A DNA stretch of 64,000 bases from Patescibacteria group bacterium (GTDB lineage Bacteria; Patescibacteriota; Minisyncoccia; Phycocordibacterales; JAKAEA01): positions 189,857 through 253,856 of the forward strand of contig JAZKCY010000001.1 in NCBI GenBank assembly GCA_040387855.1, in the 5' to 3' direction. Made by a program: the position numbers and the translations under genes. The notes under the pieces were generated by a model. It saw only the letters and a program-made list of their open reading frames with translations. It was not told the DNA's origin and made no database searches. Shown here piece by piece: positions 6,423-23,733 of this stretch (within the stretch, counting starts at the first letter, position 1; each line of letters starts with the position of its first letter).

Positions 6423-6484
6423 CTTTGTTCATACTTTGCAAAAAGTACTAAAATCTTCTAGTATGTAACAACTGTTCTGTATAT

Positions 6485-6644: not shown

Positions 6645-6912
6645 GCCGTTGTAGCTCAGTTGGTAGAGCACGTCATTGGTAAACAAAAATTGCCCTTCAT
6701 TTTGGAAACGAAATGATGAAGCCCGAATTACGGTTAATATCCATTTATATGGACAAGACCGTGGCGAGAAATCGCCCGAACGACTGACAAGGGGCGCTAA
6801 ACCGAAAAGGTATGCGCAAGATACAGTCTAATCCTTCTATAAGCCTTCTGGGGCGAAATTAAGGTATTAATGAATGACGAGGTCGACGGTTCAATCCCGT
6901 CCAACGGCTCCA
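6645..6912 (+). tRNA. tRNA-Thr (GGT) interrupted in the anticodon loop by a ~192 nt intron; CCA encoded
   Basis: The 5' exon is GCCGTTG...CGTCATTGGT(AA). The 3' exon is (AA)TGACGAGGTC-GACGG-TTCAATC-CCGTC-CAACGGC-T-CCA. Together they make a canonical cloverleaf with anticodon GGT. Confidence 0.75.
6681..6872 (+). ncRNA. group I-like self-splicing intron in the tRNA-Thr anticodon loop
   Basis: The exon ends in T and the intron ends in G (omega G). AAGATACAGTCT matches the group I S element consensus AAGAUAUAGUCY, and an upstream GACTG pairs with the CAGTC inside it (P7). Confidence 0.55.
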
Positions 6913-6955
6913 CTAAAAATAAAAACACTGCATAAGATATGTAGTGTTTTTATTT

Positions 6956-7852
6956 ATGAAAGATATAAAGATTTTGGCTCAAAAGTTTTATGATTATTCT
7001 ATTTATATTAGAGGATATTCACCAGAAACAGTAAAAAGGTATAGGCAGATTATTAACTTCTATTGTAGATTTTCCCAGATTACAAATATTGAGCAAGTTA
7101 GTGAAAAGAGTATTCAGGAACTCTTCTTATATGGCAGGACTCAAAGACAATGGCGGACAAATACCCACATTGTTTTTCATATTTCTCTAAATGTATTTTT
7201 CAGATGGTGTATTCAAGGTGGATATATAAAAATAAATCCAACAGAAAATATGGAGGTCCCTAAAGTTGAAAAGAGATTACCGCCCAAACTGACAAAACAA
7301 GATACATTAAAATTACTTGAGGTTGTCTATAATTATCCCTACGATTATAGGTATCTTAAGTATCGTAACCACGCAATATTTTCTACATTTATTTTTGCAG
7401 GACTACGTAAAAAAGAATTATTAGAATTGAAACTCTCTGATGTAGATATAGAAAATCTTACTATCTTTATCCGCCAAGGTAAGGGAAACAAAGATAGGGT
7501 GGTACCAATGACGTATACATTGGCCCAGACTCTTAAGGTATATATGAGTGAACGAAAAAGGCTGAATAAAACATGTCCACATTTCTTTGCATCCCTTAAC
7601 CGTAATATCGGGTTTACAAACATTGGATTAAGGAGATTGGTAAACAAAATCTGTATAGCTTCAGATATAAAGTTTACTATTCATAAGCTTAGACATACGT
7701 TTGCTACTCTTATGCTAGAAGGAGGTTGTGATATTTATAGTTTATCCAAGATGATGGGCCATAGTGACATCAAGACTACAACCATCTATCTCGCTGCAAG
7801 TGCTGAGCATTTGAGAATCCAAATAAGGAAACATCCCTTGAATAATTTATGA
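6956..7852 (+). CDS. tyrosine site-specific integrase/recombinase
   Basis: Catalytic-domain motifs HKLRHTFAT and GHSDIKTTTIYL (R..HxxR..Y) are present. It is adjacent to the tRNA attachment site. A GTG at 6944 lies inside the tRNA terminator hairpin, so the ATG at 6956 is preferred. Confidence 0.85.
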   Translation: MKDIKILAQKFYDYSIYIRGYSPETVKRYRQIINFYCRFSQITNIEQVSEKSIQELFLYGRTQRQWRTNTHIVFHISLNVFFRWCIQGGYIKINPTENMEVPKVEKRLPPKLTKQDTLKLLEVVYNYPYDYRYLKYRNHAIFSTFIFAGLRKKELLELKLSDVDIENLTIFIRQGKGNKDRVVPMTYTLAQTLKVYMSERKRLNKTCPHFFASLNRNIGFTNIGLRRLVNKICIASDIKFTIHKLRHTFATLMLEGGCDIYSLSKMMGHSDIKTTTIYLAASAEHLRIQIRKHPLNNL

Positions 7853-8046
7853 AATCATTGAGCAATTTTATTATTATGTAAAAATGTGTTATCGTTTCCG
7901 TCTTTAGTAATGAATTAAAAGAACTTGTTTTTAAGTCGGGCATTCTGTATACTATAAATGATTATATGGATCAGCTCTCTAATTCAAGTGTAGTAAATAT
8001 TTAGCCAAGATATAATTGGTGGGCTTTTTACTTTAGTTGTAATTTT

Positions 8047-8923
8047 ATGAAAAAATTCATTCAAAAAATATTGACAGGTACTAGATCATCTCAAAATGCT
8101 GATTTGCTTAATGAGTTTATTCAAACACAACAAGATATAAAGAAATTACCTGCCTTTTCTAACTTAGAAAAAGTTCAATTTGATCAAGATGTATCAATCG
8201 GTCATCTTTATTATTCAAGCAAAATAGAAGGTACCCATCTTGATGAAAAACGATTGAATCAAGCAATTCATGCAAAAAGAGTTTGAAAGAGCAACAGGAA
8301 AGACCGATTTGGAAAACAGAGAAGCATCTGGCTTTTGGAAAGCAATTACTTTGTCAAATGATATAGGTCAAGGGGATCAAGAAATTAATCTCGAAGTAAT
8401 TTTAAGTCTCAATCGATGTATTTTAGAGCATGCTATACCAGAAGCAGCTGGAAAACTAAGAGTAACTGGGGAGGATATACTTCCCCTTGAATGTGTAGAG
8501 CCTCCACCTGGATCTATGGTTAGAGAGAAAATGTATCAGTTTGAGAAAGATTTAAAACACAAAATTTACATAGTTCCTTTAAGGTGCCCTAAGCCAAATA
8601 ATCCTAAACACTATAAAAAGTGGGTAGATAGTGTTTTTGACCTTGCAGCATGGGTTCAGCATAGCTTAGTAGCAATACATCCCTTTTCAGAAGGGAATGG
8701 AAGGACTGCACGTCTTATGACTAATATTATTCTCAGAAGATACAATTTTCCTCCAACAGATGTGAAAATTGAATCTGATGACAAAGCAAAATATTTAAAT
8801 GCATTATGTCAAATTGATATGTATACTGATTATAAACCGTTAAAAGATCTGATACTAAAAGGTGCCCTGGCTACATTGCAAAAAGAAAGAGACATGAAAA
8901 GAAGAAAGCAAGCAGGTCAATAA
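8047..8923 (+). pseudogene. Fic/Doc-family protein split by a frameshift in an A5 run (two ORFs, 8047-8286 and 8270-8923)
   Basis: ORF1 carries the Fic N-terminal SSKIEGTHL motif and ORF2 the core HPFSEGNGRTARL. The two frames overlap at CATGCAAAAAGAG. Confidence 0.6.
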
Positions 8924-9101
8924 TTCATGATACCTTATTTTGGGTCGACGTAAGATTCAAGCTTATCTCGACGTCTAAGCTTGTAGTTATGTTGGTTTTA
9001 AAATAGTGTTAGAAATATGGATGTGTGTTACAATCTCTACTATTCTACATACAAATATAAGTACAGTAGCGATTGGAAAAAATTAAAGGTAAAATCAAAA
9101 T

Positions 9102-9464
9102 ATGGGGAATACAGACTTAATTTTACAATGGTCCAAATTAATATCATTGACTGAGGATCAAGTAGATAAACTACCTCAAGATATTGAAGGTGCTTTTCGT
9201 ATATCAAAAAAAGAGGGTGACGATAGATTCTATGTTGTTTTTATTGGCAGTTCTACAGATTTAAAAAAGGAACTTAAAAAATTGATTGCTGAAAAGAAAA
9301 CTAATTTTTTAGAACATAATGGGGAATTCTCTTTTAGATATGCTCCAGTTAAAGGCGTAGAAATAAGAAAGGCTATAGAGAAGCAGTTATATAGACAATA
9401 TGCTCCAGAATATAACTCAAAAGAACCAGAAAGCTCCTTAGATGTAAAAGCCAATCTAAATTAG
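9102..9464 (+). CDS. hypothetical protein, possibly a degenerate GIY-YIG-like domain
   Basis: 120 aa. The spacing GAFRI...(x9)...YVVFIGSS...DLKKELKK...E...YN is reminiscent of GIY-YIG, but the catalytic Tyr, Arg and His positions are substituted. Its stop is directly followed by the ATG of the next gene. Confidence 0.4.
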   Translation: MGNTDLILQWSKLISLTEDQVDKLPQDIEGAFRISKKEGDDRFYVVFIGSSTDLKKELKKLIAEKKTNFLEHNGEFSFRYAPVKGVEIRKAIEKQLYRQYAPEYNSKEPESSLDVKANLN

Positions 9465-10160
9465 ATGACATTAGTTATAGGATTAAAAGCCAAAGATGGA
9501 GTTGTAATCGCCTCTGATAGCAGAGCAAGTTCTACTATCACTAGTAATGATACTGTTCAAAAGATTTTTAAACTTGGAGATCATAGTGCAATTGGTATTG
9601 CTGGTGATGGTGGTTTGGCAATGTACTTTCTTGATCAAATAAGAGCTGGTTTAAATCATGGAACAGGGATTTCAGATTTGGCTGAACAAGTTAGAATAAA
9701 AGGTAAAAACACCTTCAATGACTTTTTCGAACATTTATTGCCAGATAAAAGACCTTCACTTTCTTTGTTATTAATTGGTTATACCACTGATGGTAAGCCT
9801 GAGATGTACACTCTCCAAAGTGGAGACAATTTTGTGCCGAGAAAAGGTGTTACAGGATTTGAATGTATAGGGGTTCCTTATATTGCAGATTATTTACTTA
9901 ATCGTCTTTATGAATCAGATATAAAAATTGATGCAGGGGCAGAGATGTCGGTTTTGTGTATACAAGAGACATCTTCTCAGGATAGAGGTGTCGGAGGTCC
10001 TACTAGAATTGCAACATTTTCTGCGACTAAACAATTTGAAGAGATGTCCAAATCAGATATCGATAAGCTAAAGCAAAAAGCTGAGCAATTTCAGATTAGT
10101 CAAAAGAATCGTTTCTACCCTGAAGATCCAAATTCTGGTATATCTGCGCCTACAGTATAG
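9465..10160 (+). CDS. Ntn-hydrolase of the proteasome beta-subunit/HslV family
   Basis: Begins MTLVIGLKAKDGVVIASDSRAS, so Thr sits directly after the initiator Met. GVVIASDSRAS matches the proteasome/HslV GxVIAADTRxT block, and Asp17 and a Lys near position 33 are present. It is 231 aa with a ~50 aa C-terminal extension. Confidence 0.65.
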   Translation: MTLVIGLKAKDGVVIASDSRASSTITSNDTVQKIFKLGDHSAIGIAGDGGLAMYFLDQIRAGLNHGTGISDLAEQVRIKGKNTFNDFFEHLLPDKRPSLSLLLIGYTTDGKPEMYTLQSGDNFVPRKGVTGFECIGVPYIADYLLNRLYESDIKIDAGAEMSVLCIQETSSQDRGVGGPTRIATFSATKQFEEMSKSDIDKLKQKAEQFQISQKNRFYPEDPNSGISAPTV

Positions 10161-10440
10161 ATGAAAATTTATGGAGTTAAGTTTGGGAACACTTATAAGC
10201 ATTACTCTAGTAGTTAAGCAGAACCATATGCTTTAGATGTTAGAAGGGAATTAAATCAAAACTAGAGCAATCTGGCTTTAAAGAGATATGGCTTACTAGT
10301 TCTATCCCCAAGCTAATATACAAACAGTATCCGTTGTAGACATTTCAGCAATGAATCTATTTGCATATGTAATTCCTGGGTTTTATCAAATCTACCTAAT
10401 ATAACGAAGACACAATAAAATCGTAAGATTTTAACTCAAC

Positions 10441-10818
10441 CTATTTTACCTTTCTAAATATAGAAAACCATTTCCTAGGTATCTTTTGATGGTGTTCAAG
10501 TAGTCTTGATTCGGTAGTAACAGAAGAAATATTTAATTCCTGTAAGACTTTCGGTTCTAAACTATCTGCAATTGAGCGAAAAGCACAAGCTAGGGTTTCT
10601 GTGGTGATCGTTTGATAATAGAATCGAGAACCCTGCTTACGACACTTTACAAGACCTCTTTTGTATAGCTTATTGATGAGTAGATAAACAGTTGGTCGAG
10701 GAATACAAGTGTCTAAGCTCAGGGAGGATAAACTTTTATTTGAAGAGTTAATCGACTGTAAAACAGCGTTCTCTTTATCTGATAATCCAAGAAGGTTTTT
10801 TTGCTCCTCAGTAAACAT
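10441..10818 (-). CDS. small winged-helix DNA-binding regulator-like protein
   Basis: 125 aa with a helix-turn-wing pattern (PTVYLLINKLYKRGLV...GSRFYY). It is oriented divergently from the RHS gene. Confidence 0.4.
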   Translation of the reverse strand: MFTEEQKNLLGLSDKENAVLQSINSSNKSLSSLSLDTCIPRPTVYLLINKLYKRGLVKCRKQGSRFYYQTITTETLACAFRSIADSLEPKVLQELNISSVTTESRLLEHHQKIPRKWFSIFRKVK

Positions 10819-10985
10819 ATAATTTTAGTTCTAATTAGTGTCGGATTTGCTGACATTTAAATTGTCTCACAAATAATCTTTTTCAAATAGATGAGTTATA
10901 CCCTGTATTACTTTTATAAGTTTTAGTATTAAAATTATTTCTACTTTAATCAAGATATAATCAGATTTTGCAAAATTAGAAAATG

Positions 10986-11013
10986 TTGATAGGAAAGTAT
11001 ACTCAGCTATAAC
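10986..11013 (+). promoter_or_regulatory. candidate sigma70-like promoter for the RHS gene
   Basis: TTGATA, 16 nt spacer, TATAAC, about 45 nt upstream of the GTG start at 11058. Confidence 0.25.
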
Positions 11014-11057
11014 ACCTAGCTATACTTTAGGTATTACTTACTCATCTAATAAATTAA

Positions 11058-14000
11058 GTGAACCAATCATTTTCACGGGAGCGACAGGGAAGAAACTTAA
11101 CAAACGTAATTGTTGGGTTACTTATCCTCTCATTAGTTTTTAGTAGTCCATTATTAACATTTGCTCAAAGTGTTGATGAAGCTCCTAGTCAGGCTCCTGT
11201 TGAAACTCCAACAAACTCACCAGCAGTTGATACAAATACTATTCCTCTTGATACATCTGAAATTCAAAATGCGATAGAATATAACAATAATAATCAGGAG
11301 GCTGCATTAACAGAGTCAGCTGAAGATTCACCACAGTCTTTAGAAGCAGAAGAGGACCAAAATATAATTGCACTTCCTGATGATGAGTTACAACCAGACT
11401 CACTATTGTCAGATACAGAGACAGGTGTAGATCGATTTCGTGATCCTTCAGCAAATGTTATTAAAAATCAAATATCCAGAAATTTGGCTGGTGCACTTAA
11501 TTATTCATACCCAATAGAAGTGCCTCCAGGAAGGACACAGGCTACAACTCCAAATTTGGAATTGCAATATTCAAGTAGTCCCGATCTTGCAAATGTGTTT
11601 GGCTATGGTTGGTCAGTTAACATTCCATATATCGAAAGAGTCGGAAAGAGAGGAACAGATAAGTTATATACAGGCACCGATTTTAATTCTTCTCTTACAG
11701 GAGAATTGGCATCAACTTCGGCAACAACCTATATCTCCAAAATTGATAATGGAGATTTTTTGAATTACACTTTTCAAAATAATATATGGACGGTTACTGA
11801 TAAATCGGGAAATCAATATACGTTTGGTTCAACAACAGCTGCAAGACAGGATAATGTTGCTAGCTCTACACAAGTTTATAAGTGGATGCTTGAAGATTTT
11901 AGAGATACAAATGGTAATTATATTAAGTATCAGTATTCTAAAGATTCTGGACAAATATATCCTTCATCAATTATTTATTCAGGAAATAATACAACAGACG
12001 GGCCATTTGAAGTTGCTTTCAGTCGAGAGTCTCGAGCTGATGTCTCAACTTCAACACAATCAGCGTTCAGTGTTGTTACAAAAGATAGAATTAATGAAAT
12101 TCAAACAAAATTTAACGGTGATTGGGTAAGGAAATATACACTAGCATATAGTACAGGCGATAATACTGTTCGATCCATATTAACCTCAGTGACACAATCT
12201 TCACGGGATGATTTACTTACAGCTACAACTACACTTCCTGCAACCACATTTACGTATTCAACTTCAACATTATCTTATTCACAAAGTTCTGCTTTTCAAC
12301 CTCCTATATCACTTAATGAAGCTTTTACTGATCCCTATTTCATGAACACTGGGGTAACTGATTATGGCTTGAAGATTGTTGATATAAACGGCGACGGATT
12401 AACTGATATTCTTCAAGCATTTGGTGCTCGATACGGTGGTTCTTGGACAGTTGAATATCACGCCTATATAAATAACGGGAATGGGTACACTGATACACCC
12501 TCTTGGTATTCTCCCGTGGATTTTATGATACAGGCTCAGGATGGTTATCGAATTGACACAGGTGTGGTATTTGAAGATATAAATGGGGATAAATTACCAG
12601 ATCTTATTCAGTCAAGTGATGGTACTCATGGTTGTGGTTGTTTTGGTTCCCCTTGGATTGAACCTGTAAAAAAGGTATATATAAATACTGGATCTGGTTT
12701 TGCAACGAGTACCGATTGGGTTATACCAGTTTATTTTGTATACAACGCAACACAACAACATACTAGAGATCTAGGTGTGCGAATGGCTGATGTTAATGGT
12801 GATGATTTACCAGATATTCTTGAAGGCCGCACTTATTCAAATGGTTCAGGAGGTACAACAACAGTTAAAAATGTATTTATTAATACTGGAACAGGTTTCG
12901 CTACATCAACAAGTTGGACTCTGCCTGTAGATTTTGTTGATAGCTGGAATCAAAATCGTGGTAATCCCTACCAAGATCTTGGAGTTAGAATTGTGGATAT
13001 TAACTCTGATGGTCTTAATGATATTGTAGAATCGAGCTGCCTTTCTAATGGATCAGTTTACCGTAAGAAAGCATATATAAATTCTGGTACTGGTTTTGTT
13101 GATGATCCAACATGGCATCCTGCTTTATGTTTTGTTACGAGAGATCCTGCCACACCTAACACTTATAGTCTGGTTAATTACATGGATGAGGGGGTACGAT
13201 TTATGGATATCAATGGTGATAGTCTTGTGGATTTTTATAAAAGTACAACTAACGATGCTACTGCGACCTCTACTGCTTATCTAAATACGGGAAAAGGTTT
13301 TAGTTTGCTTAATTCATGGACCCCTGCAACATCAACAATTTATGCATCGGGAAATGATAGAAATGATCGTGCAACGAGATTTGTTGATATAAATGGTGAT
13401 GGAAGAACAGACGTTTTGCAAGGAAGAGGTGATGTGTATCCTAGTCTAAGATACGCATACTTAAGTGCTTCAACAACTCCAGATTTGCTTATAAAAGTTC
13501 AAGAGCCACAGGGTGGTATGACATCAATGTCATACAAAATGTCTGCTCAATACAATAATGCAACCTCATCAAATCCGAATCTCCCACTTAATGTTCGAAC
13601 TGTTGAAACAATTGCTACTAACAATGCCTTTGGAATAGTGGGTACAACTACATATGCATATAATGGAGGACTCTTCTATTTCAATAATGCATTTGATAAG
13701 AAGTTTGCAGGTTTTGCATCAACAACTGAAACTGATGCTGTTGGGAATCTAACAAAATCTTATTTTCACCAGGGGAGTACGACTGATTCAAGTCATGGTG
13801 AGTATCAAGATGATGCTTCAAAAATTGGTAAAGCTTATCGAATTGAAAAATATGATAATGCCAATAATCTCTATCAGAAAATAATTAATAAGTGGGATAA
13901 GTCTGCTCTTTCTAATGGAGCAAACTTTGTGAAGCTTACCCAAACGATTAATTCTGCATATGATGGAACAGTAAATCATAAAGACAAGGCAGAGCAGTAT

Positions 14001-17000
14001 ATATATAATGATGCCGCTGGAACACTAACTCAAAAAATTCAACTCGGAGAGGTCACGGGTAGTGATGATGGTACCCTCTCGGATACTGGTGCAGATTTAT
14101 TTACAACAACAATAACCTATGCTACCAGCTCTCCTATAATTATTCCTGCTACTGAGATCATGGTAGATCAGAGTTCAGTTAAAGTTGCTGAGGTTCGTCA
14201 TTACTATGATACCCTCTCTTTGGGAAGTGTGACAAAAGGTAATAAGACAAAAATTGAAAAGTGGAAAGTAAGTAGCTCATATGCATCTACCACGCGGACA
14301 TTCAATGCTTATGGTCTTGTAACACAAGAACTTGATCCCCGAAGTAAGGCAACAAACTATGTATACGATATATATAATATGTATCCAGCAACAAGTACAA
14401 ACGCATTAAGTCAATCCACATCATATGTATACAATTACCTAGTTGGTAAAGTAAAACAGGTAACTGACTCTAACGGTTTGGTAAATCAAACTACTTATGA
14501 TGGATTCGGAAGAGTTACAGAAGAAAAGCAACCTGATCTTACAACTCCTTCAACTCTAGTTACAAAAGCAACATATGCGTATACAGACACAGCATTACAA
14601 ACAAGTGTTCATAAGGTAAATTATCTTTCTGCATCAAGCACTACAAATTCCTATAATTACTATGATGGATTAGGTAGATTGATTCAAGAACGAAAATCTG
14701 CAGAGGGAACTAATTATTCAGTCAGTGATACTATTTATAATTCTCTTGGTCTTAAGGCTTCACAATCACTCCCATATTTCTCAACTGGTTCTGCAAGTAC
14801 AACCCCAACGGCAACAACAGCACTTTATACACGGTATACGTATGACCCATTACAGCGAGTGAAAACAGTTGCCAACATTGTTGGTACAACTACAAATACA
14901 TACACACCTTGGGTGGTTCATGTTGAAGATCCTCGATATAAAGCAAAGAACTATTATCGCGATGCATATAATAACCTCATAAAGGTTGATGAAATTGATG
15001 GAGTGACAGGATATGCAACTGAATATCAATATAACGGTTTGGGTAAACTTACAAAGATCACTGATGGACTAGCAAATGTGCGTAACTTTACCTACGATGG
15101 ACTTGGAAGAAGATTAACAGCACAAGACCTTCATGCATCAGCTGATACAACATTTGGAAGTACAACCTATGCATATGATGATGCTGGAAACCTAACTCAA
15201 AAAATAGATGCAAATAATCAGACTGTGAATTATACCTATGATGATCTCAATAGACCACTAACTGAAAATTATACAGGTGCAGTAGGAACTGAAATAAGCT
15301 ACGGATATGATTCTTGTGTTTATGGAGTGGGAAGATTATGTAGTGCTACAACAACTGATGCTATTACTCAATATGAATACAACACTGAAGGATTACAGAG
15401 TAAAGAAACAAAAACTTTAAATGCAGTTAATTATATTACTCAGACTCAATATGATCGACAGGGTAATGTAACAAACATTGTATATCCTGATAGTTCACAA
15501 GTTGCATACACGTATAATACTGGCGGTCTTCTAGAAACAGTCTCACGAAAAGAAAGTACTGATGGAGGATTTACTAATGTGGTGACAAATTATGACTACT
15601 CACCATTAGGTCAGGTTACTGCTATTGCATATCAAAATGGAGTGCAAACTACAAACACTTATGATGCAAATGAACTCTACAGATTAAGAAGTAAAGTAAC
15701 TACAAATGCATCAAGTACCAATCTTCAGAATATTGCTTACACCTATGATGCCGTAGGAAATATCACTGGCATTACAGATACTTCAGCAACAAATGGAGCA
15801 AAGACAGCAGTTTATACTTATGACGATCTTAATCGCTTATCATCAGCAACTGTAACTGCTTCAAGCACCAGTGGAGGTAGTTGGTACAACTCATCATGGG
15901 GATACCGAGTTCCAATAACTGCAAGTTCTTCTAAAGTTCTTGAAGACATTAAGGACGTATATGTACCACTCTCATCATTACCATCAGGTTTCTTTGCAAA
16001 TGCAAAATCAGATAGTTGTGATATTCGAATGACAAAAGCAGATGGTACTACTGAGCTAGCAATAGATTTAGTATCTGCATCAACAACTGGTCAGCTGCAT
16101 TTCTCAACAGGGAATAGTCTCTCAACTTCTTCAAGTACAATCTTCTATCTTTACTACGGAAACCCAAGTGCAAGTTGTTATGCCTCAAATGCTACCTACG
16201 GAGCAAACAATGTGTATGACTCAAATACAAAGGGAGTATGGCATTTAGAGCAAAATTCAGCCTCTACAGGAGCAATTGTAGACTCAACCTCAAATGTTCA
16301 TCATGGAACTATGTATTCAAATTATTCAGCAAATGCAAACGGAACTACAACTGGAAAACTTGGAAGTGCAGCAGTCTTTGATGGTACAAATGACACTATC
16401 GATGTCCCAGACAGTTCAGACTTTGAAGGTGCTGCGACAACTATTGAAGCCTGGGCATACATGGATACACTTCCAAGTGTAAAGGGTGAGAATGAAGTCC
16501 TAGTTACAAAGAAGCATGGATCATCACCATGGAGATCATATGCTGTTATGTTTTCAAATCCTGAAAATAGAACTGATGGTAATTGGAATAATAGTTCAGG
16601 AAGTACAGGATATGCTGGTACCTATGCAGGATCAGTATCAGCAAATGCATGGCATTATGTAACCCTACGACAAAATCCTTCAGATACCTCAAGTGAAGTA
16701 TCTGTGCGAACCAATGCTTCAAATGCTACAACATATACCGCCGATACTGATGGCACTACTTACAATTCAAATGATGCTCTACGTTTTGGTGCAGACTATG
16801 CTGGTGGAGAACGACTTGATGGAAACCTAGATGAAATCCGAATTCACAATGTTGCTCGAAGTGATAATTACATCACTACTCGATACAACAACATGAATGC
16901 TCCTTCAACATTCTGGAGTGTTGGATCACAAACTGCAGCTGCAACATCTTCAAACACAAGTTATACAGAAAACTACACTTACAATATTCTTGGAAACATA

Positions 17001-18281
17001 CTTACTAAGACAGGCGCAGCTGGTACATATGCATATACTGGTAGTTCAACAGGCTATGCAAATCCTCATGCGGTGACTGCGATTGGATCTGATACCTATG
17101 CATATGATAACAATGGAAATCTTACTTCGGCTCCAGGAATCACTAACTTATGGGATTATCGAAATCGATTAACACAATCTGTCGCTACGAGTACCGTGAC
17201 CTATGCGTACGATCATGCTAATAGTCGAATTAAATATTCAGTAGCATCAACTACAACCTCTTATCCAAATAAGTTCTACAATACAACAGGTGCAACCACT
17301 ACAAAGCACATCTTTGATGATAGAGGTCAGATGATCGCTACACTTGAAGGCTCAAATGCAAGTACAACGGTTCATTATACTCATACTGATCATCTTTCTG
17401 GATCAAATGTTATTACGAATTCATCTGGTATCTTAGAACAATTGACGGATTACTATCCTTACGGTAATGTTCGCTTAGATGAAAGGACTGGAGCGTTTAA
17501 TGAGCAGAGGAAGTATGCAGGTAGTGAGTTTGACGGTGATACAGCGTATAACTATATGCAAGCTAGGTATTATGATAGTAATAGTGGAAGGTTTATTTCT
17601 CAGGATTCTATATTTCTTAATATGGGAAATGAAAATGACTTCCTTTCTGATCCTCAGCAACTAAATAGTTACAGTTACGCGAGAAACAATCCATTAAAAT
17701 ACTATGATCCTGATGGTAATCAGACAGTATCGGCTCCTCTTAATGCAGTTTTTCGATTTTCAGGATCAGCTAGTCTTGCGCAATCACTTGCAATGGCCGA
17801 TGCTATTCTTGCTGGGGGTTCAATTGCGGGTGCAATCGTCAGTGCTGGACCTGTGTTAGTGGGAGGGGGTATAACTGCTGTTCTCGTTTATGCTGTTGTT
17901 ACTACACCTTGGACACCATTAAGTCAAAACCAAAGTACTCCTTCGTTTTCTAGTTCTTTATCACCAACAAGTCTTCCAACCGCAAATTCAAATCCTCTTT
18001 TGGGAACTGGTACAACAGCTGATTTTGGTAATTGGTTTAATTCAATAAACTTATCAAAAACAACAATTACACAAAAACCTGGTAATTTTAACGATGCACA
18101 GAGAGATTTTTGGGCAAGAAATCCAGAGAATGTGCAACATCGACCAAATGGTACAATTACTGGAAATTTACCAAATGGTGACAAAATAAATGTAAGACCA
18201 CAAAGTAGTGATGGTCGACCTACAATTGAGATTCAGAAAGAGGGTGGTGGAGTAGAAAAAATAAGATATGGAAATAAATAA
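11058..18281 (+). CDS. RHS/YD-repeat polymorphic toxin (2407 aa), built as signal peptide, SpvB/TcdB-N-like domain, FG-GAP/beta-propeller repeats, YD-repeat shell with an inserted DUF2341/LamG-like module, RHS core with a DPxG motif, and a variable C-terminal domain
   Basis: N-terminal signal peptide; a SpvB-like block (NVFGYGWSVNIPYIERV); seven VDINGDGLTDIL-type repeats; many YD repeats (YTYDGLGRRLT, YAYDDAGNLTQK, YTYDDLNRPLTE...); LDGNLDEIRIHNVARSDNY (LamG); and the RHS core ...RYYDSNSGRFISQDS...NNPLKYYDPDGNQ. Confidence 0.9.
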   Translation: MNQSFSRERQGRNLTNVIVGLLILSLVFSSPLLTFAQSVDEAPSQAPVETPTNSPAVDTNTIPLDTSEIQNAIEYNNNNQEAALTESAEDSPQSLEAEEDQNIIALPDDELQPDSLLSDTETGVDRFRDPSANVIKNQISRNLAGALNYSYPIEVPPGRTQATTPNLELQYSSSPDLANVFGYGWSVNIPYIERVGKRGTDKLYTGTDFNSSLTGELASTSATTYISKIDNGDFLNYTFQNNIWTVTDKSGNQYTFGSTTAARQDNVASSTQVYKWMLEDFRDTNGNYIKYQYSKDSGQIYPSSIIYSGNNTTDGPFEVAFSRESRADVSTSTQSAFSVVTKDRINEIQTKFNGDWVRKYTLAYSTGDNTVRSILTSVTQSSRDDLLTATTTLPATTFTYSTSTLSYSQSSAFQPPISLNEAFTDPYFMNTGVTDYGLKIVDINGDGLTDILQAFGARYGGSWTVEYHAYINNGNGYTDTPSWYSPVDFMIQAQDGYRIDTGVVFEDINGDKLPDLIQSSDGTHGCGCFGSPWIEPVKKVYINTGSGFATSTDWVIPVYFVYNATQQHTRDLGVRMADVNGDDLPDILEGRTYSNGSGGTTTVKNVFINTGTGFATSTSWTLPVDFVDSWNQNRGNPYQDLGVRIVDINSDGLNDIVESSCLSNGSVYRKKAYINSGTGFVDDPTWHPALCFVTRDPATPNTYSLVNYMDEGVRFMDINGDSLVDFYKSTTNDATATSTAYLNTGKGFSLLNSWTPATSTIYASGNDRNDRATRFVDINGDGRTDVLQGRGDVYPSLRYAYLSASTTPDLLIKVQEPQGGMTSMSYKMSAQYNNATSSNPNLPLNVRTVETIATNNAFGIVGTTTYAYNGGLFYFNNAFDKKFAGFASTTETDAVGNLTKSYFHQGSTTDSSHGEYQDDASKIGKAYRIEKYDNANNLYQKIINKWDKSALSNGANFVKLTQTINSAYDGTVNHKDKAEQYIYNDAAGTLTQKIQLGEVTGSDDGTLSDTGADLFTTTITYATSSPIIIPATEIMVDQSSVKVAEVRHYYDTLSLGSVTKGNKTKIEKWKVSSSYASTTRTFNAYGLVTQELDPRSKATNYVYDIYNMYPATSTNALSQSTSYVYNYLVGKVKQVTDSNGLVNQTTYDGFGRVTEEKQPDLTTPSTLVTKATYAYTDTALQTSVHKVNYLSASSTTNSYNYYDGLGRLIQERKSAEGTNYSVSDTIYNSLGLKASQSLPYFSTGSASTTPTATTALYTRYTYDPLQRVKTVANIVGTTTNTYTPWVVHVEDPRYKAKNYYRDAYNNLIKVDEIDGVTGYATEYQYNGLGKLTKITDGLANVRNFTYDGLGRRLTAQDLHASADTTFGSTTYAYDDAGNLTQKIDANNQTVNYTYDDLNRPLTENYTGAVGTEISYGYDSCVYGVGRLCSATTTDAITQYEYNTEGLQSKETKTLNAVNYITQTQYDRQGNVTNIVYPDSSQVAYTYNTGGLLETVSRKESTDGGFTNVVTNYDYSPLGQVTAIAYQNGVQTTNTYDANELYRLRSKVTTNASSTNLQNIAYTYDAVGNITGITDTSATNGAKTAVYTYDDLNRLSSATVTASSTSGGSWYNSSWGYRVPITASSSKVLEDIKDVYVPLSSLPSGFFANAKSDSCDIRMTKADGTTELAIDLVSASTTGQLHFSTGNSLSTSSSTIFYLYYGNPSASCYASNATYGANNVYDSNTKGVWHLEQNSASTGAIVDSTSNVHHGTMYSNYSANANGTTTGKLGSAAVFDGTNDTIDVPDSSDFEGAATTIEAWAYMDTLPSVKGENEVLVTKKHGSSPWRSYAVMFSNPENRTDGNWNNSSGSTGYAGTYAGSVSANAWHYVTLRQNPSDTSSEVSVRTNASNATTYTADTDGTTYNSNDALRFGADYAGGERLDGNLDEIRIHNVARSDNYITTRYNNMNAPSTFWSVGSQTAAATSSNTSYTENYTYNILGNILTKTGAAGTYAYTGSSTGYANPHAVTAIGSDTYAYDNNGNLTSAPGITNLWDYRNRLTQSVATSTVTYAYDHANSRIKYSVASTTTSYPNKFYNTTGATTTKHIFDDRGQMIATLEGSNASTTVHYTHTDHLSGSNVITNSSGILEQLTDYYPYGNVRLDERTGAFNEQRKYAGSEFDGDTAYNYMQARYYDSNSGRFISQDSIFLNMGNENDFLSDPQQLNSYSYARNNPLKYYDPDGNQTVSAPLNAVFRFSGSASLAQSLAMADAILAGGSIAGAIVSAGPVLVGGGITAVLVYAVVTTPWTPLSQNQSTPSFSSSLSPTSLPTANSNPLLGTGTTADFGNWFNSINLSKTTITQKPGNFNDAQRDFWARNPENVQHRPNGTITGNLPNGDKINVRPQSSDGRPTIEIQKEGGGVEKIRYGNK

Positions 18282-18771
18282 AAATAAATCAAATATTCTA
18301 ATGCCAGAAAAATATAGTAAATGGGAACCAATTCAGGGAATCGAATCCGAACTATGGATAGAAGCACTTCACGATGACTACGAAGGCTTGCGAATTATAG
18401 TTAAGGGTACTAATGAGGCTTCGGCTATGTATAGTATACTTTTTCCAAATTATTATACATATCGTAATACTGATGAATCGTATCGACTCAAGCTTTGGGA
18501 AGAAGGTGAGTTTGAAGACCGTAAGTGGTCACTCTTTTTCATTAAAGCATCAAAATTTATAGATTGGGTTCATGAAGAAAGTGATACTCTGTATAAAAAA
18601 GAAGATATGATGCATTACTTGATTAAGACAGGAGCTGATGTGATTGAAGTTGTCACGAATGGTATCGAACCAAAAGTTATAAAACTTCACGAAAAGGTTC
18701 AGTCTGACCTAGAATCTAATTCATTAGTTAGAAGAGGTAAAAGAGGTAGCTATTTTGATAAAATTGATTAA
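18268..18771 (+). CDS. putative cognate immunity protein for the RHS C-terminal toxin
   Basis: 167 aa cytoplasmic-type ORF that overlaps the RHS stop by 14 nt (translational coupling), which is the canonical toxin-immunity arrangement. Confidence 0.5.
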   Translation: MEINKNKSNILMPEKYSKWEPIQGIESELWIEALHDDYEGLRIIVKGTNEASAMYSILFPNYYTYRNTDESYRLKLWEEGEFEDRKWSLFFIKASKFIDWVHEESDTLYKKEDMMHYLIKTGADVIEVVTNGIEPKVIKLHEKVQSDLESNSLVRRGKRGSYFDKID

Positions 18772-18787
18772 GTTGTGGCCACGGTGA

Positions 18788-18964
18788 AGGTTATATGTCG
18801 CAGCAGTCCTTTACCCACTACATAGTGATCATCTATCTGGATCAAGTATTGTATCAAATGTTTCAGGAAGTATTGAAGAACTTTCAGATTATTATCCATA
18901 CGGAGCTATGAGAATTAGTGATCAGTCTGGATCATTTACTGACCTAAGAAAATATGTATTTTAA
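18788..18964 (+). pseudogene. orphan RHS core remnant (displaced C-terminal fragment)
   Basis: Translates to ...LHSDHLSGSSIVSNVSGSIEELSDYYPYGAMRISDQSGSFTDLRKYVF*, homologous to the HTDHLSGSNVITNSSGILEQLTDYYPYGNVRLDE core of the full-length gene. No start codon, and it ends before a DPxG motif. Confidence 0.6.
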
Positions 18965-18984
18965 TTTCATTAATAAAACATATT

Positions 18985-19431
18985 ATGCATCCATACGAAT
19001 ATAATTTAAGTTTCAGTCTTGTACATCCAAAGAAGAAATTAAGTGAGTTATATAATAGAATTAGTGAAGTTTCTGGATTTTATCCTCGACGAATTTGGAC
19101 TGCAGGAGATAAACGAAAGACCCAATCGGGAGAAGATCTGGAAGGAACATACAAAGAATCATACTGTTATTTTGCTCTAAATAATTCTTTATTAAAAAGT
19201 TCAGAAATTCGTTTGGAAAATAGTCTTGAAGAAGTCTTAGAGAAGCTTTCAGTTTTGAAAAGAGAATTCAAAGAATTTGTTGACGAGGATGGAGTTTTAG
19301 AAATAACCGTTGGGTTTTACGTTGATTCAAATTCTGCTGGAATATTTCATTTTGAATTACTTAGAAAATTCTGTGATTTAGGAATTGGCTTAACTCTTGA
19401 TGTATACTCTTCAGTTAATGAGATGAAATAA
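18985..19431 (+). CDS. hypothetical small protein, candidate orphan immunity protein
   Basis: 148 aa immediately downstream of the RHS core remnant. Acidic, with no TM; the size and context fit an immunity-gene array. Confidence 0.4.
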   Translation: MHPYEYNLSFSLVHPKKKLSELYNRISEVSGFYPRRIWTAGDKRKTQSGEDLEGTYKESYCYFALNNSLLKSSEIRLENSLEEVLEKLSVLKREFKEFVDEDGVLEITVGFYVDSNSAGIFHFELLRKFCDLGIGLTLDVYSSVNEMK

Positions 19432-19434
19432 TTC

Positions 19435-20004
19435 ATGAAATACAAAGTTGAAAGACCCCCATTAACAGGAAACTTTTTCTTGCCTTCAAAAGAAAGTTTA
19501 GTTGAACTTAAACCAGGCAATCTTGTCAAAATTATGATTAGACATGAAGAAGAAGGAGTAGAAAGAATGTGGGTAAAAATAATACAACAGCAAGATATTT
19601 CAGAATGGACTGGGGTTTTAGATAATGATCCTGTAGGTGAAAAAATGAGTGGATTGTTAAAAGCAGGAGATATAGTAATATTTCATCCTCTGGATATCAT
19701 TCAGATCTGGGATGATAAAAAAATTACAAACTGGGAATTTAAAGAAGCAATAAATGCCAGAGTGTTTACTACTCCAGAAATAGCTTCGGGTATAAAACCT
19801 GTTTTATTTGCAATACATGAATTAGATGGCGATTGGCAGTTTTTGCCATCTGAAAAAACTGAGGATAAAAACGCAATTTTTATCCCTTTGAGGTACTTAA
19901 TTGAAAATGATAATACTTTGTCTGAATTGGGTAATCTACCTGTGGGATGGCACGCAAAACGAAAAAGTATTGAGGATTCGTGGATTAGAGAAAGTGAAAA
20001 ATAA
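19435..20004 (+). CDS. DUF2314(YegJ)-like protein, candidate immunity protein
   Basis: 189 aa with ERMWVKI...GVLDNDP, resembling the ERMWVxV...GxLxNxP pattern of DUF2314 proteins that recur in polymorphic-toxin immunity arrays. The start is 3 nt after the previous stop. Confidence 0.45.
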   Translation: MKYKVERPPLTGNFFLPSKESLVELKPGNLVKIMIRHEEEGVERMWVKIIQQQDISEWTGVLDNDPVGEKMSGLLKAGDIVIFHPLDIIQIWDDKKITNWEFKEAINARVFTTPEIASGIKPVLFAIHELDGDWQFLPSEKTEDKNAIFIPLRYLIENDNTLSELGNLPVGWHAKRKSIEDSWIRESEK

Positions 20005-20119
20005 CCTTAACTATATATTTAAATTTTTTATTGCATTAATAAGCGAAAAATTTGACTTGACCCTAATTACTACCTCACATTCAGGTAGACCAAATCCTTA
20101 ATAATAATAATTAACTGAT

Positions 20120-20425
20120 ATGTATATTAAAAAACAATTAGAGGACGGTGGAAATAAAATAATATGGAAAGGCAATGTGTCTTTTCCTGAAAAAATGATT
20201 AATATAATAAGTAAAATAGATACTCGAATTTATCCATTATTAAAAGGGATCGCATCTTACGAGGATACTTATTTTAATTCACAACAGACAAAGGATCTCA
20301 TTGAAGAACTTCAATCGTTTAAAGATTCACTTACTGATGAAAAGGATAAAGAGGAAATAGAAAGCTTAGTAAAATTCGCTAAGGATATAGATATGCAGGA
20401 ACATTTGGTTTTTGTAGGTGATTAA
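20120..20425 (+). CDS. hypothetical small acidic protein (immunity-like)
   Basis: 101 aa located within the immunity-like gene run. Confidence 0.35.
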   Translation: MYIKKQLEDGGNKIIWKGNVSFPEKMINIISKIDTRIYPLLKGIASYEDTYFNSQQTKDLIEELQSFKDSLTDEKDKEEIESLVKFAKDIDMQEHLVFVGD

Positions 20426-20545
20426 ATGCTGTCTAGGTGTTGACCCATTAATTTAAGGGAGGTTGTGCATAAAAATAAATGGCAAATTGTAGAAAAATCT
20501 AATTTGTAAACATACTCTTTTCTATTAGTTTGCTAGAATAAAGTT

Positions 20546-21064
20546 ATGGCAACATTGCGTCAAAAATTGGCTTTTAATAAAACCATTGAAAATCAGGGAA
20601 ATGTTAGTAAAGCTATGAAAGAAGCTGGTTATTCCAGGAGTCACGCTCATAATCCACAATCACTGGTTAAGAGTAAAGGTTTTCAGCAGATGCTTCAAAA
20701 TTATATTCCAGAGCAACGAATTCTTGAGAAAGTTAGTGAGTTGTTTGAAAGGGGAGAAATAGTAAGTCGGACATTTCCTTCAATCCTTGGTTTAGATACC
20801 GTTAAGAAAATGTTTGAAAAGGCAGGATTGACCATTTTAAATTTACGAGAAGTAGGGGATCAAAAAAATGAAATAGAAGTATATTTCATTCAGCCAGATG
20901 CTACATCACAAGATAAGGCTCTCGAAAAATCAATTAAATTGCATGGTTTATATGAGACAGATCATACACATGGGGCTAATGCTAAAGGATTGTCACTTAT
21001 AAGTCTTTTTGAAAAGGTAGAAGAAAGAAGAGCAAATAGGGCAATGAAGAATAAGATTCAATAA
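20546..21064 (+). CDS. phage terminase small subunit-like HTH protein
   Basis: The N-terminus LRQKLAFNKTIENQGNVSKAMKEAGYSRSHAHNPQSLVKSKGFQQML matches the LxxKQxxFxxxYxxxGNxxxAxxxAGYS...A...LLK pattern of phage terminase small subunits. Confidence 0.45.
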   Translation: MATLRQKLAFNKTIENQGNVSKAMKEAGYSRSHAHNPQSLVKSKGFQQMLQNYIPEQRILEKVSELFERGEIVSRTFPSILGLDTVKKMFEKAGLTILNLREVGDQKNEIEVYFIQPDATSQDKALEKSIKLHGLYETDHTHGANAKGLSLISLFEKVEERRANRAMKNKIQ

Positions 21065-21720
21065 GTCTTTATTTGAAAGTAAGAAGTATTATTTAGTTGT
21101 TTAGACACTAGTTCTAATTTTTTTATATGCTCTAATGGGCGCTTGAGGTCCTGACCCTGTGAAATCAGGTTTTCGTAATTTTCTGCTAGCTTATTACCGA
21201 ACACACCGTCTCCAAAAATATCATAGTCTTGTTTAATAAACTTACCCAATCCAAATGGAAAGACTGCATCAAGTTTAGTTGTACCAAAACCTACTGGTAA
21301 GCGACTATGAATATCGTGAAATGGACTAAAGCTGTATCCTTTTGGAATTTTAACTGATCGTCTCGGGTGATATGGATGGAAGTAGAGGATATCCCAGCTT
21401 TTGCCATCAAAGGATACAGTTTCAAATACATCAATAGGATTTGCTATTGCACCTATAGTTACTGATCCAATCCTATGAAATAGTAACGCTGAATTATTTT
21501 TCGTTCTAAGTCTACCAATATATTTAATTTCACCAATAGGTCCATTAACAGGTATAGGATTGGATGCCATTAATCCAAATGAACCATTAGCTCCTTTAAC
21601 TTCGTCACAAACTTCTCCTTCTAGACATATTTTAGAAAACTGTTCAGGAAATTTAAGTAGATCAGCTTTTTGTTCTAGTAAGGACTCATCTTTGATGACT
21701 TTTTTAAAAAGGTTGAACAT
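21058..21720 (-). CDS. hypothetical protein (220 aa)
   Basis: Long ORF with no recognisable motif. It abuts the upstream 101-aa ORF with zero spacing (coupled pair). Confidence 0.45.
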   Translation of the reverse strand: MFNLFKKVIKDESLLEQKADLLKFPEQFSKICLEGEVCDEVKGANGSFGLMASNPIPVNGPIGEIKYIGRLRTKNNSALLFHRIGSVTIGAIANPIDVFETVSFDGKSWDILYFHPYHPRRSVKIPKGYSFSPFHDIHSRLPVGFGTTKLDAVFPFGLGKFIKQDYDIFGDGVFGNKLAENYENLISQGQDLKRPLEHIKKLELVSKQLNNTSYFQIKTY

Positions 21721-22126: not shown

Positions 22127-22351
22127 ATGATCCCTAAAAACAGCGCTATCTTAAAAAAGTTTGGAGAACGCGTGAGAGATATACGGTTACGAAAAGGAAT
22201 ATCTTCACAGATGACTTTTGCTAATAAAGCTGGACTAGATCGAACCTATATTGGAGGAGTGGAAAGAGGTGAACGAAATGTATCTTTAATCAATATTGAA
22301 AAGATTGCAAAAACTCTTAATGTTAATATTGAAGACTTGTTTAAGTTTTAG
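22127..22351 (+). CDS. XRE-family (Cro/CI-type) HTH transcriptional regulator
   Basis: 74 aa with the HTH_XRE pattern RLRKGISSQMTFANKAGLDRTYIGGVERGERNVSLINIEKIAKTL. Confidence 0.75.
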   Translation: MIPKNSAILKKFGERVRDIRLRKGISSQMTFANKAGLDRTYIGGVERGERNVSLINIEKIAKTLNVNIEDLFKF

Positions 22352-22522: not shown

Positions 22523-23470
22523 ATGAAAGAAAATATTTCGGAATTATTTAAAAAATTTATTGAGGACTGTAGGTATATTAAACGGCTTCGTCCAGAAACT
22601 ATTCGTACTTACTCTGAGGCATTTAAAACTTTTATAAAAGTTATGCCAGAAGTGGTCAATGTTAAGTTGCTTACTCGTGAGATGCTAACTCTCTACTTCA
22701 AAAGACTTGAAACAAGAGGGAGAAAGGTTGGAAAAGATACTATTAAAATTGGTGTAAAGGACTCAACAATTAAAACCTATCAGAATAGATTAAATGTGTT
22801 TTTCACATGGCTTGTAAATATGCAACATATAGAAACCAATCCATTTATTGGGATGAAGTTTCCTAATCCAGTATACGAAGATAGTAGAGCATTAGAGCAA
22901 GATAGTATTGATAAAATATTTGCTGCTGTGGCGTTACACTCAATAAATTCACTAATCCATAAGCGAGACATAGCAATACTAAGTCTACTTATGTTCTGTG
23001 GTTTGAGAAGAAATGAGCTTATCTCACTTCAAGTTAATGATGTTGATTTTGAAAATTCAATGTTAGTCATTAAAGGTGAGACATCGAAATCTAAAAAAAC
23101 GCATTCTGTCCCATTACATCCAACTCTAGGAATGCATTTAAAGGATTACTTAAAAGAACGTTGCAAAAAAGAGTATAAAACTCAATATTTAATCATCTCT
23201 ACAAATAGAGATCGAGGATTAAGTAGCGATGGATTGAAACATTGGGTAAAAAGGCTGGTTAAATTATCTGGTGTAAAATTTCATCTCCATAAATTTCGAC
23301 ATACCTTTGCCTGTAACCTAGCTAAAAATAATGTAAGCGTATTCAACATTCAAACGTTGATGGGGCATAAAGATTATAAGATGACGTTATCATATTTGAG
23401 ATCAGTGAAAACTAAGGATCTTAGAGACGAGATTAATAGGTTATACAGTAATGTTGATAATTTTCACTAA
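22523..23470 (+). CDS. tyrosine site-specific integrase (second copy, distinct sequence)
   Basis: HKFRHTFACNLA and GHKDYKMTLSYL catalytic motifs, plus an N-terminal core-binding domain. It lies 190 nt upstream of the partial tRNA repeat. Confidence 0.85.
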   Translation: MKENISELFKKFIEDCRYIKRLRPETIRTYSEAFKTFIKVMPEVVNVKLLTREMLTLYFKRLETRGRKVGKDTIKIGVKDSTIKTYQNRLNVFFTWLVNMQHIETNPFIGMKFPNPVYEDSRALEQDSIDKIFAAVALHSINSLIHKRDIAILSLLMFCGLRRNELISLQVNDVDFENSMLVIKGETSKSKKTHSVPLHPTLGMHLKDYLKERCKKEYKTQYLIISTNRDRGLSSDGLKHWVKRLVKLSGVKFHLHKFRHTFACNLAKNNVSVFNIQTLMGHKDYKMTLSYLRSVKTKDLRDEINRLYSNVDNFH

Positions 23471-23659: not shown

Positions 23660-23701
23660 TTGGTAATGACGAGGTCACCGGTTCAATCCCGGTCAACGGC
23701 T
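23660..23701 (+). repeat. partial tRNA-Thr 3' segment (anticodon loop through acceptor), the attR-like direct repeat
   Basis: TTGGTAATGACGAGGTC-ACCGG-TTCAATC-CCGGT-CAACGGC-T is intronless and has compensatory T-stem changes relative to 6873-6909. There is no 5' half upstream. Confidence 0.65.
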
Positions 23702-23733
23702 CCCGTAATTAATTTTAACGAACTATTAAATAT

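Follow-up and report, generated by a model that had tools for sequence, protein, structure and literature searches.

The gene at 11058..18281 on the forward strand of the window, as the whole 64,000-nucleotide stretch of Patescibacteria DNA analysed here will be called (contig JAZKCY010000001.1, positions 189,857 to 253,856), probably encodes a Sec-exported, single-chain RHS polymorphic toxin that resembles the TcB-TcC proteins and belongs to the 'TcdB/TcaC' class. It would have a cognate immunity gene as its partner and be carried by an integrative element of the Patescibacteria genome. A preliminary description had taken the product for a 2407-amino acid (aa) RHS/YD polymorphic toxin. This is borne out by the YD repeats, by a core with autoprotease residues, by a variable tip with its cognate immunity gene, and by an orphan core remnant further downstream. 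The domain models named in that description (RHS_repeat, Rhs_assc_core, SpvB, FG-GAP and LamG) were all recovered. The order in which it placed the domains is correct for those that it listed, but a DUF2341-like and LamG insert of about 360 aa, which interrupts the YD shell, was omitted.

An intact gene of a large, collinear family

The 2407 codons form a single open reading frame (ORF) without interruption. The identical protein is public at NCBI as 'MAG: RHS repeat-associated core domain-containing protein [Patescibacteria group bacterium]' (MAG, metagenome-assembled genome), encoded on a 981,549-bp contig, and it is also present in the Logan assembly of SRR26324620. More than 900 proteins match the toxin at E ≤ 1e-10. 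The best 120 homologues are collinear with it over the full length, and those that are named are mostly from Patescibacteria (Paceibacterota, Adler-, Ryan-, Kaiser- and Doudnabacteria). As two assemblies contain the same protein and the family keeps its collinearity from end to end, a misassembly or a fusion of several genes, which would have undone the preliminary description, is not credible and was rejected. A literature search returned no study of the Patescibacteria SpvB-propeller-RHS family as such, passing mentions only.

The RHS core and its predicted cleavage site

The RHS-associated core model Rhs_assc_core (TIGR03696) matches aa 2132–2220 with an E value of 4.9e-16. The core motif PLKYYDPDGN (aa 2212–2221) fits the autoproteolysis signature PxxxxDPxG, and residues R2170, D2183 and D2217 align with the arginine and the two aspartates of the YenC2 aspartyl autoprotease. 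These three residues, together with G2220, are invariant in 39 aligned homologues. The two aspartates are separated by 34 residues, compared with 23 in YenC2, an 11-aa loop, common in the Patescibacteria clade, accounting for the difference. In RhsA, the two aspartates and the PxxxxDPxG motif were shown experimentally to be needed for cleavage and for killing (PMC8765631). The crystallised YenC2 chain (4igl_B) stops one residue past its DPDG, and cleavage of the toxin core is predicted by analogy between N2221 and Q2222. The signature had been recognised from the outset, but the asparagine that follows it had been regarded as an exception to a usual leucine, which it is not. The residue after DPxG among 120 homologues is R in 23, K in 17, N in 16, E in 13, L in 11 and Q in 6.

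The predicted C-terminal fragment comprises 186 aa (19.3 kDa) and has a pI of 9.5, the remainder of the protein having a pI of 4.7. A C-terminal cargo was rightly proposed at first, although not as the single domain then envisaged: the fragment is composite, with a hydrophobic stretch, a linker rich in S, T and P, and a tip of about 75 aa. The hydrophobic stretch (aa 2243–2285), 43 aa rich in G, A, V and I, and the signal peptide are the only hydrophobic segments of the toxin. A similar stretch follows the core in 32–54% of the Patescibacteria homologues, whereas none of the shell controls has one. Such a Gly/Ala-rich stretch also precedes the same tip in proteins of other phyla, and it accompanies many unrelated tips. 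It may be a common pre-toxin carrier for passage through a membrane.

A widespread toxin tip

Past the core, the tails of 97 homologues are mutually unrelated, and precomputed Pfam matches place many different toxin domains there. The C-terminal tails diverge among homologues whose scaffolds are 40–50% identical. An exhaustive profile search with the tip of the present toxin gave 1440 representative proteins at E ≤ 1e-3 and 686 at E ≤ 1e-10. The family size is that of the exhaustive profile search; a word-indexed search with the tip alone yielded three proteins only. The match is always at the extreme C-terminus, in proteins ranging from 80 to 3300 aa. When eight of these proteins were scanned with NCBIfam, an RHS core was found in six, one of which also contains PT-HINT (Pfam).

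The consensus of the tip family reads KGRTxQxEKPGxxxxANxDFDxLxPxxV...G.LPDGRxVNVRPxSSDGRPTLEIQxGKxxIKxRYG, and the toxin retains every strongly conserved residue from A2347 on. The AlphaFold2 model of the tip, with a predicted local distance difference test (pLDDT) above 90 in its core, consists of an extra N-terminal strand, one helix and a five-stranded antiparallel sheet (b0-a-b1..b5, with strands E28–33, E50–54, E60–63, E69–73, E82–86 and E92–97, and helix H37–46). The near-invariant residues R2380, S2383, D2385, R2387, T2389, E2391 and Q2393 flank the b3-b4 loop: b3 closes with V-R2380, the loop consists of S2383-x-D-G-R-P, and b4 begins with T2389-x-E2391-x-Q2393, with 77–99% conservation in 150 sequences. 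K2401, R2403 and Y2404 are on the last strand. The tip has about ten near-invariant polar residues.

In BECR-like RNases, a helix precedes a β-meander that has b5 at its C-terminal end, an additional strand is present at the N-terminus in some cases, and polar residues flank the b3-b4 loop (bioRxiv 10.64898/2026.08.28.747851). Both the topology of BECR and BECR-like proteins and the polar residues around the b3-b4 loop are found in the tip model. The model has no significant match to any solved structure, and neither a sequence link nor a significant structural link to a named family was obtained. As canonical BECR proteins are missed when a structure search starts from a BECR-like protein (bioRxiv 10.64898/2026.08.28.747851), the weak structural matches of the tip decide neither way. 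Tentatively, and going by its modelled fold, the tip is regarded as a probable RNase of the BECR-like type. SRLase1 and the BECR-like RNases are likewise C-terminal tips of polymorphic toxins with a small immunity gene downstream (bioRxiv 10.64898/2026.09.18.752725, 10.64898/2026.08.28.747851). However, SRLase1 uses R70, D72, H85 and H97, and SRLase1 membership of the tip was rejected, as the catalytic histidines are absent.

The cognate immunity gene and traces of earlier cassettes

The next gene starts 20 nucleotides (nt) past the stop codon of the toxin gene, a longer ORF of 167 aa starting at 18268. One genome per species was scanned for the tip alone with a four-sequence tip alignment, which gave 11 loci, in Massilia, Pseudomonas, Lysobacter, Methylococcaceae, Parvularcula, Desulfobacteraceae, Balneolaceae, three Bacillaceae and a Paceibacterota MAG. 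A homologue of the downstream gene directly follows the tip gene in 10 of these 11 loci (phmmer E 5e-30 to 5e-7). The pair is thus present in Pseudomonadota, Desulfobacterota, Bacillota, Balneolaceae and Paceibacterota. Because the pairing is conserved across phyla, the two are considered to be a toxin and its cognate immunity protein, and the evidence from these genomes that 18301..18771 is the immunity gene of the tip is strong. No Pfam family was found in 11 immunity homologues. The product is acidic and soluble, no membrane segment being detected, and its pI of 5.1 contrasts with that of 9.5 of the toxin fragment.

The immunity gene favours a role in interbacterial antagonism. A contact-dependent role in competition or in host/episymbiont interaction had first been suggested; contact dependence is not borne out, and the signal-peptidase site described below argues for release rather than anchoring.

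In one Patescibacteria homologue with a different tip, a Barstar-family gene occupies the same downstream position (11970–12383 of its locus), which indicates that the family swaps classical RNase/immunity cassettes. In the window itself, a remnant of an RHS core starts fifty bases past the immunity gene and ends with a stop after RKYVF. It is followed by a DUF4279-like ORF; DUF4279 is the immunity family FdL-Imm5 of polymorphic toxin systems (PMC9424270, PMC13304343). The core remnant and the DUF4279-like ORF together are a classic trace of the displacement of a tip/immunity cassette at an RHS locus. Two small ORFs without family match come after the latter (19435..20004 and 20120..20425), and the ORFs at 18985–20425 may form an array of orphan immunity genes.

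The N-terminal region

The signal peptide has a basic n-region, a 19-aa h-region (Kyte-Doolittle 2.4) and a TFA↓QS site. The same design, with n-region, h-region and AXA-type site, is present in 47 of the 50 homologues with a complete N-terminus (for example VFA↓QE and ALA↓QE). The linker that follows, with a net charge of -21 in the toxin, is acidic in 98% of the N-terminally complete homologues. Signal peptide and acidic linker had both been proposed beforehand, and their recurrence in the family supports them. As the AXA-type site is kept across the family, cleavage and release are favoured over membrane anchoring. The sequence therefore argues for a signal peptide that is cleaved, the protein being released rather than anchored.

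The β-propeller was also correctly anticipated (FG-GAP_3 E 4.2e-8), but with seven repeats, whereas six DxNGD-type motifs are present, at aa 442, 507, 578, 647, 717 and 777. A seventh blade was rejected, there being no seventh motif of this type. Six blades agree with the propeller of TcB, which is pseudo-six-fold (PMC11435725).

The YD shell and its inserted module

The Pfam model RHS_repeat matches six stretches of the toxin (E 1.2e-21), TIGR01643 matches with an E value of 2.4e-11, and the YD_repeat_2x model was also recovered. The protein contains sixteen YxY[DN] motifs, and its shell has a precomputed match to TEN_YD-shell.

The shell is interrupted by the insert of about 360 aa mentioned above; against 381 residues of the toxin, homologues of about 2000 aa have 20 at this place. 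Laminin_G_3 matches aa 1775–1939 (Pfam E 2.8e-12), and DUF2341 matches weakly in the same insert. An AlphaFold model of the insert (pLDDT 79.8; predicted template modelling score 0.82) consists of a small β-sandwich followed by a LamG jelly roll. One strand stands at either end, as expected of a domain set into a hairpin. The insert is a unit of about 350 aa, of which at least 14 homologues have one or two copies.

The scaffold has a near-constant length of about 1950–2000 aa across the family, and large insertions are found at recurrent points. In 39 aligned homologues these points are, in the numbering of the toxin, after ~1549 (11 sequences), ~1603 (6, including the toxin), ~2042 (about 10) and ~2104 (3). 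The extra domains at recurrent shell points include LamG/DUF2341, CBM_4_9, Ig-like, PF25788 and others. The insert of the toxin would project from the shell and may bind a surface glycan or receptor.

Relationship to known toxins

A family profile was built from 22 members and searched against the PDB. The best match is the TcdB2-TccC3 fusion (E 4e-56). Over the propeller region, TcdB1 (5e-27) and YenB (2e-25) are matched, profile positions 330–813 aligning to residues 344–796 of TcdB1 and 341–801 of YenB. TccC2 and YenC2 are matched over the C-terminal shell, and the N-terminal domain of SpvB with an E value of 1e-8. The profile also matches Rhs effectors of type VI secretion systems (T6SS) and bacterial teneurin-like proteins (E 1e-20 to 3e-22 for the latter). 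Of the TcB/TcC and teneurin-like architecture first put forward, the TcB/TcC part is supported by the match to TcdB2-TccC3, but the plug end is not teneurin-like, as it is made of SpvB and FG-GAP domains.

On the basis of these alignments, the toxin is a natural relative of the Tc BC cocoon, made as a single chain and with a shorter shell. It is homologous to the cocoons of Photorhabdus (TcdB2-TccC3) and Yersinia (YenB-YenC2) over the SpvB domain, the propeller, the shell and the core, and has the same autoprotease residues. Encapsulation of the toxic part would be a further common trait. Unlike the Tc proteins, it is one polypeptide, its shell is about 700 aa shorter, and it has an extra LamG module. 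It further differs by its signal peptide, its immunity gene and its 186-aa cargo, and by the lack of a TcA gene nearby. Tc loci are not known to have dedicated immunity genes. The hypervariable regions of valid TcC proteins measure 201–400 aa (PMC7861908), a range that the fragment does not reach.

Bacillus subtilis WapA is reportedly a Sec-exported Rhs toxin with WapI as its immunity protein. WapA and the present toxin have in common a monoderm cell, a Sec signal, an RHS shell, an RNase-type tip and a downstream immunity gene. WapA has N-terminal cell-wall-binding repeats, and is not known to have a SpvB domain, a propeller or a LamG insert.

The T6SS Rhs effectors (P. protegens RhsA, A. baumannii Tse15, Tse5) also have a YD shell, a core autoprotease and immunity genes, and they provide the best single-sequence PDB matches of the toxin (Tse15 and other Rhs chains). 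They differ by PAAR/prePAAR or clade domains and by a cork-like plug with N-terminal autocleavage (PMC8765631). No PAAR/prePAAR or VgrG-binding N-terminal domain was found in the toxin with Pfam and NCBIfam, the Sec signal being there instead. Teneurins have the YD shell fold in common with the toxin, but they combine an FN-plug with an NHL propeller, their core is uncleaved and their ABD/Tox-GHH is external (PMC8765631). In the toxin, NHL and Tox-GHH have no Pfam match, and the autoprotease residues are intact.

The 'TcdB/TcaC' class of polymorphic toxins was described as combining a signal peptide, SpvB, an integrin-like β-propeller, RHS repeats and a variable C-terminal toxin with an adjacent immunity gene (Zhang et al. 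2012, PMC3482391). The toxin has every feature that defines the class, which is thus already described. Patescibacteria are not included in that survey, and neither lectin-like modules at recurrent shell points nor the present tip/immunity pair were found described in its accessible part (PMC3482391). Genes of this sort had been noticed earlier: in the Saccharibacteria, a 2487-aa RHS/YD protein of T. rhizospherense is likewise a giant RHS toxin, which has domains for carbohydrate binding and an immunity gene as its neighbour, in a genome of the candidate phyla radiation (PMC6031116). It receives a one-sentence mention and, by that description, is set apart by its PA14 and galactose-binding domains (PMC6031116).

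Proposed mechanism

The signal peptide would be removed at TFA↓QS, and the acidic protein of 239 kDa would fold outside the cell. By homology, the SpvB-like domain and the YD repeats would form a closed shell, capped at one end by the six-bladed FG-GAP propeller and sealed at the other by the RHS core. The core protease, with R2170, D2183 and D2217, would cut after N2221, as its residues suggest, and the basic 19-kDa fragment would stay encapsulated. The DUF2341-like and LamG module, the fold of which is modelled, would project from a loop between two YD repeats and could bind a glycan or receptor of the target cell. Upon binding, the fragment would be released, and the Gly/Ala stretch may aid the crossing of the target membrane. 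The 75-aa tip would then act in the target cytoplasm, most likely as a BECR-like RNase. In the producer and its kin, the acidic 156-aa immunity protein, the synteny of which with the tip is observed, would neutralise the tip. The locus would diversify by swaps of tip/immunity cassettes and move on an island integrated in a tRNA-Thr gene, the remnant and the boundaries being visible in the window.

Several points weigh against this scheme. Each of its elements, from export, cleavage and encapsulation to ligand, toxicity and neutralisation, is an inference. The propeller gate of Tc toxins opens only on docking to TcA, for which the propeller is the docking element (PMC11435725), yet no TcA-like gene was found in the 64-kb window, where the other large genes are housekeeping genes, or within 6 kb of three other Patescibacteria homologues. 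No part of the tip is covered by Pfam or NCBIfam, with which the C-terminal 187–213 aa and tip homologues were scanned, and searches of PDB sequences with the tip (phmmer and profile) gave chance matches only. Near its N-terminus, the tip deviates from its family at three positions of moderate conservation (S2333 for G, I2337 for Q, and Q2339 for E). Finally, the tip family has no conserved histidine, which many BECR and BECR-like RNases use.

Alternative readings

The toxin could be aimed at the host of an episymbiont. Docking on the host envelope would fall to the lectin-like module. The RNase-like tip would either cripple the host or set nucleotides free for a cell that is unable to make them, and the immunity gene would serve for self-protection only. 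The toxin family is very common in Patescibacteria, and the source is a Patescibacteria MAG with a contig of about 1 Mb. Cultivated Patescibacteria are epibionts with little nucleotide biosynthesis, which also counts for a host target. The variable binding modules at recurrent shell sites would fit an adaptation to different host surfaces. This alternative is nevertheless considered unlikely. The same tip/immunity pair is found in free-living Pseudomonas, Massilia, Bacillus and others, which fits ordinary interbacterial competition, and the orphan immunity genes suit a conflict with kin or competitors. The sequence holds nothing that identifies the target.

That the protein is mainly a teneurin-like adhesin, attaching the cell to a partner with a secondary or vestigial tip, is improbable. 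The matches to TEN_YD-shell and of the profile to teneurin-like proteins, as well as the LamG binding module, would suit an adhesin, and the N-terminal hydrophobic segment could in principle be a type II anchor. However, AXA-type sites are conserved, and the plug end consists of SpvB and FG-GAP instead of FN-plug and NHL. The autoprotease residues are invariant, whereas teneurins are uncleaved (PMC8765631), and the tip keeps all the strongly conserved residues and a conserved immunity partner.

It is quite improbable that the Gly/Ala stretch is itself the toxic element, as a membrane-depolarising pore former of the glycine-zipper type, the C-terminal domain being accessory. The composition of the 43-aa stretch and its recurrence, past the cleavage site in homologues as well as ahead of the same tip in other phyla, could be read in this way. 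However, the stretch accompanies many different tips, as a carrier would, and the downstream gene co-varies with the tip and not with the stretch. The immunity product is a soluble acidic protein, and the near-invariant polar residues of the tip are typical of an enzyme.

There is very little chance that the protein is the BC part of a three-component Tc (ABC) toxin with a eukaryotic target and a TcA encoded elsewhere in the genome: the top PDB matches are TcdB2-TccC3, TcdB1 and YenB, the six-bladed propeller is the TcA-docking element of Tc toxins (PMC11435725), and natural B-C fusions exist (PMC7861908), but no TcA-like gene was found in the 64-kb window or next to three Patescibacteria homologues, the family conserves a cleavable signal peptide, the cognate immunity gene, the bacterial-type tip and the small fragment do not fit, and a 1-Mb genome would be heavily burdened by a TcA of ~2500 aa.

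With the gene read as a Sec-exported polymorphic toxin, a broader proposal can be made, although its likelihood is low. The SpvB-propeller-RHS proteins of Patescibacteria might be self-contained delivery devices that are independent of TcA, made of a cocoon, an exchangeable receptor-binding module and a hydrophobic carrier replacing the TcA channel. If so, the lectin-like module in fixed shell loops would be analogous to the Hc domain of clostridial neurotoxins, and ultra-small episymbionts would attack host or rival cells with it, or feed on them. Patescibacteria have genomes of about 1 Mb and live attached to other cells, and their means of fighting or exploiting their neighbours are poorly known. 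In the present case, 0.7% of the DNA of one such genome is spent on a complete and apparently functional toxin/immunity system on a mobile element. Three leads emerge: a widespread tip/immunity pair, with 1440 tip representatives from Pseudomonas to Bacillus, that is in no curated library; family-wide fixed insertion points in the RHS shell with exchangeable lectin-like modules; and a propeller gate of the Tc type that has to open in the absence of TcA. Current ideas are not overturned, but a known toxin class is extended into a poorly studied phylum.

A putative mobile element and its surroundings

The RHS locus lies in a region of about 16.8 kb (~6873–23708) that, from its sequence, looks like an integrated mobile element. 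It is bounded by direct repeats of the 3' half of a tRNA-Thr gene, and a tyrosine recombinase is encoded at each boundary (Table 1). The G+C content of the region (~6.9–23.7 kb) is 0.347, compared with 0.378–0.379 in the flanks.

Table 1. Coordinates of the toxin gene, of the predicted parts of its product and of associated features in the window
Feature	Position	Strand	Basis
Left boundary repeat, 3' half of tRNA-Thr(GGU)	6873..6916	+	Direct repeat, 86% identity over 44 nt; ARAGORN on joined halves
Tyrosine recombinase at left boundary	6944..7852	+	Phage_integrase
Complete RHS toxin gene	11058..18281	+	GTG start, 2407 aa, 262 kDa
Sec-type signal peptide, aa 1–36	11058..11165	+	Hydropathy and motif; predicted cleavage TFA↓QS
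Acidic low-complexity linker, aa 37–135	11166..11462	+	Net charge -21, pI 4.05
SpvB/TcB N-terminal domain, aa ~136–400	11463..12257	+	Pfam SpvB E 2.7e-14; family profile matches 6p0x and TcB
FG-GAP β-propeller, aa ~430–800	12345..13457	+	FG-GAP_3 E 4.2e-8; six DxNGD motifs
YD/RHS-repeat shell, first part, aa ~801–1604	13458..15869	+	Pfam RHS_repeat, YxYD motifs, TEN_YD-shell match
Inserted module, aa ~1605–1965	15870..16952	+	DUF2341-like β-sandwich (aa ~1614–1715) and LamG jelly roll
YD/RHS-repeat shell, second part, aa ~1966–2131	16953..17450	+	Motifs, alignment, family profile
RHS-associated core / aspartyl autoprotease, aa 2132–2221	17451..17720	+	TIGR03696, YenC2 alignment; predicted cleavage N2221↓Q2222
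Hydrophobic Gly/Ala-rich stretch, aa 2243–2285	17784..17912	+	Hydropathy
C-terminal toxin tip, aa ~2332–2407	18051..18281	+	pI 9.9; BECR-like topology of model
Cognate immunity gene, 156 aa, pI 5.1	18301..18771	+	Synteny with tip; start from alignment and public gene call
Orphan RHS-core remnant, 46 codons	18821..18958	+	tblastn E 2e-15, 52% identical to aa ~2104–2150
DUF4279-like ORF, 148 aa, likely orphan immunity gene	18985..19431	+	Pfam DUF4279 E 4.3e-4, under curated cut-off
Tyrosine recombinase at right boundary	22523..23470	+	Phage_integrase; 28% identical to left recombinase
Right boundary repeat, second tRNA-Thr 3' half	23665..23708	+	Direct repeat

Upstream of the toxin gene, the element encodes a Fic/DOC-domain protein (8270–8923, E 4.7e-12) and a proteasome-subunit-like protein (9465–10160, Pfam Proteasome E 1.6e-20). 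A TrmB-like regulator (10441..10818, reverse strand) is divergent and lies just before the toxin gene. The element also holds a gene for an XRE-type helix-turn-helix protein (22127..22351) and several ORFs without family match. A scan for promoters and terminators gave fewer promoter-like sites than in shuffled sequences, and as many terminators as expected.

At the left boundary, a 192-nt piece (6681–6872) interrupts the tRNA-Thr(GGU) gene within the anticodon loop, past nucleotide 36. No group I intron model matched this piece in an Rfam scan of 6400–6960; it follows a U and ends in a G, as a group I intron would. The gene is missed by raw ARAGORN and Rfam scans of the window, but the joined halves (6645–6680 and 6873–6916) are recognised by ARAGORN as an intact tRNA. 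A second 5' half, 98% identical, is found 160 nt upstream (6485–6522).

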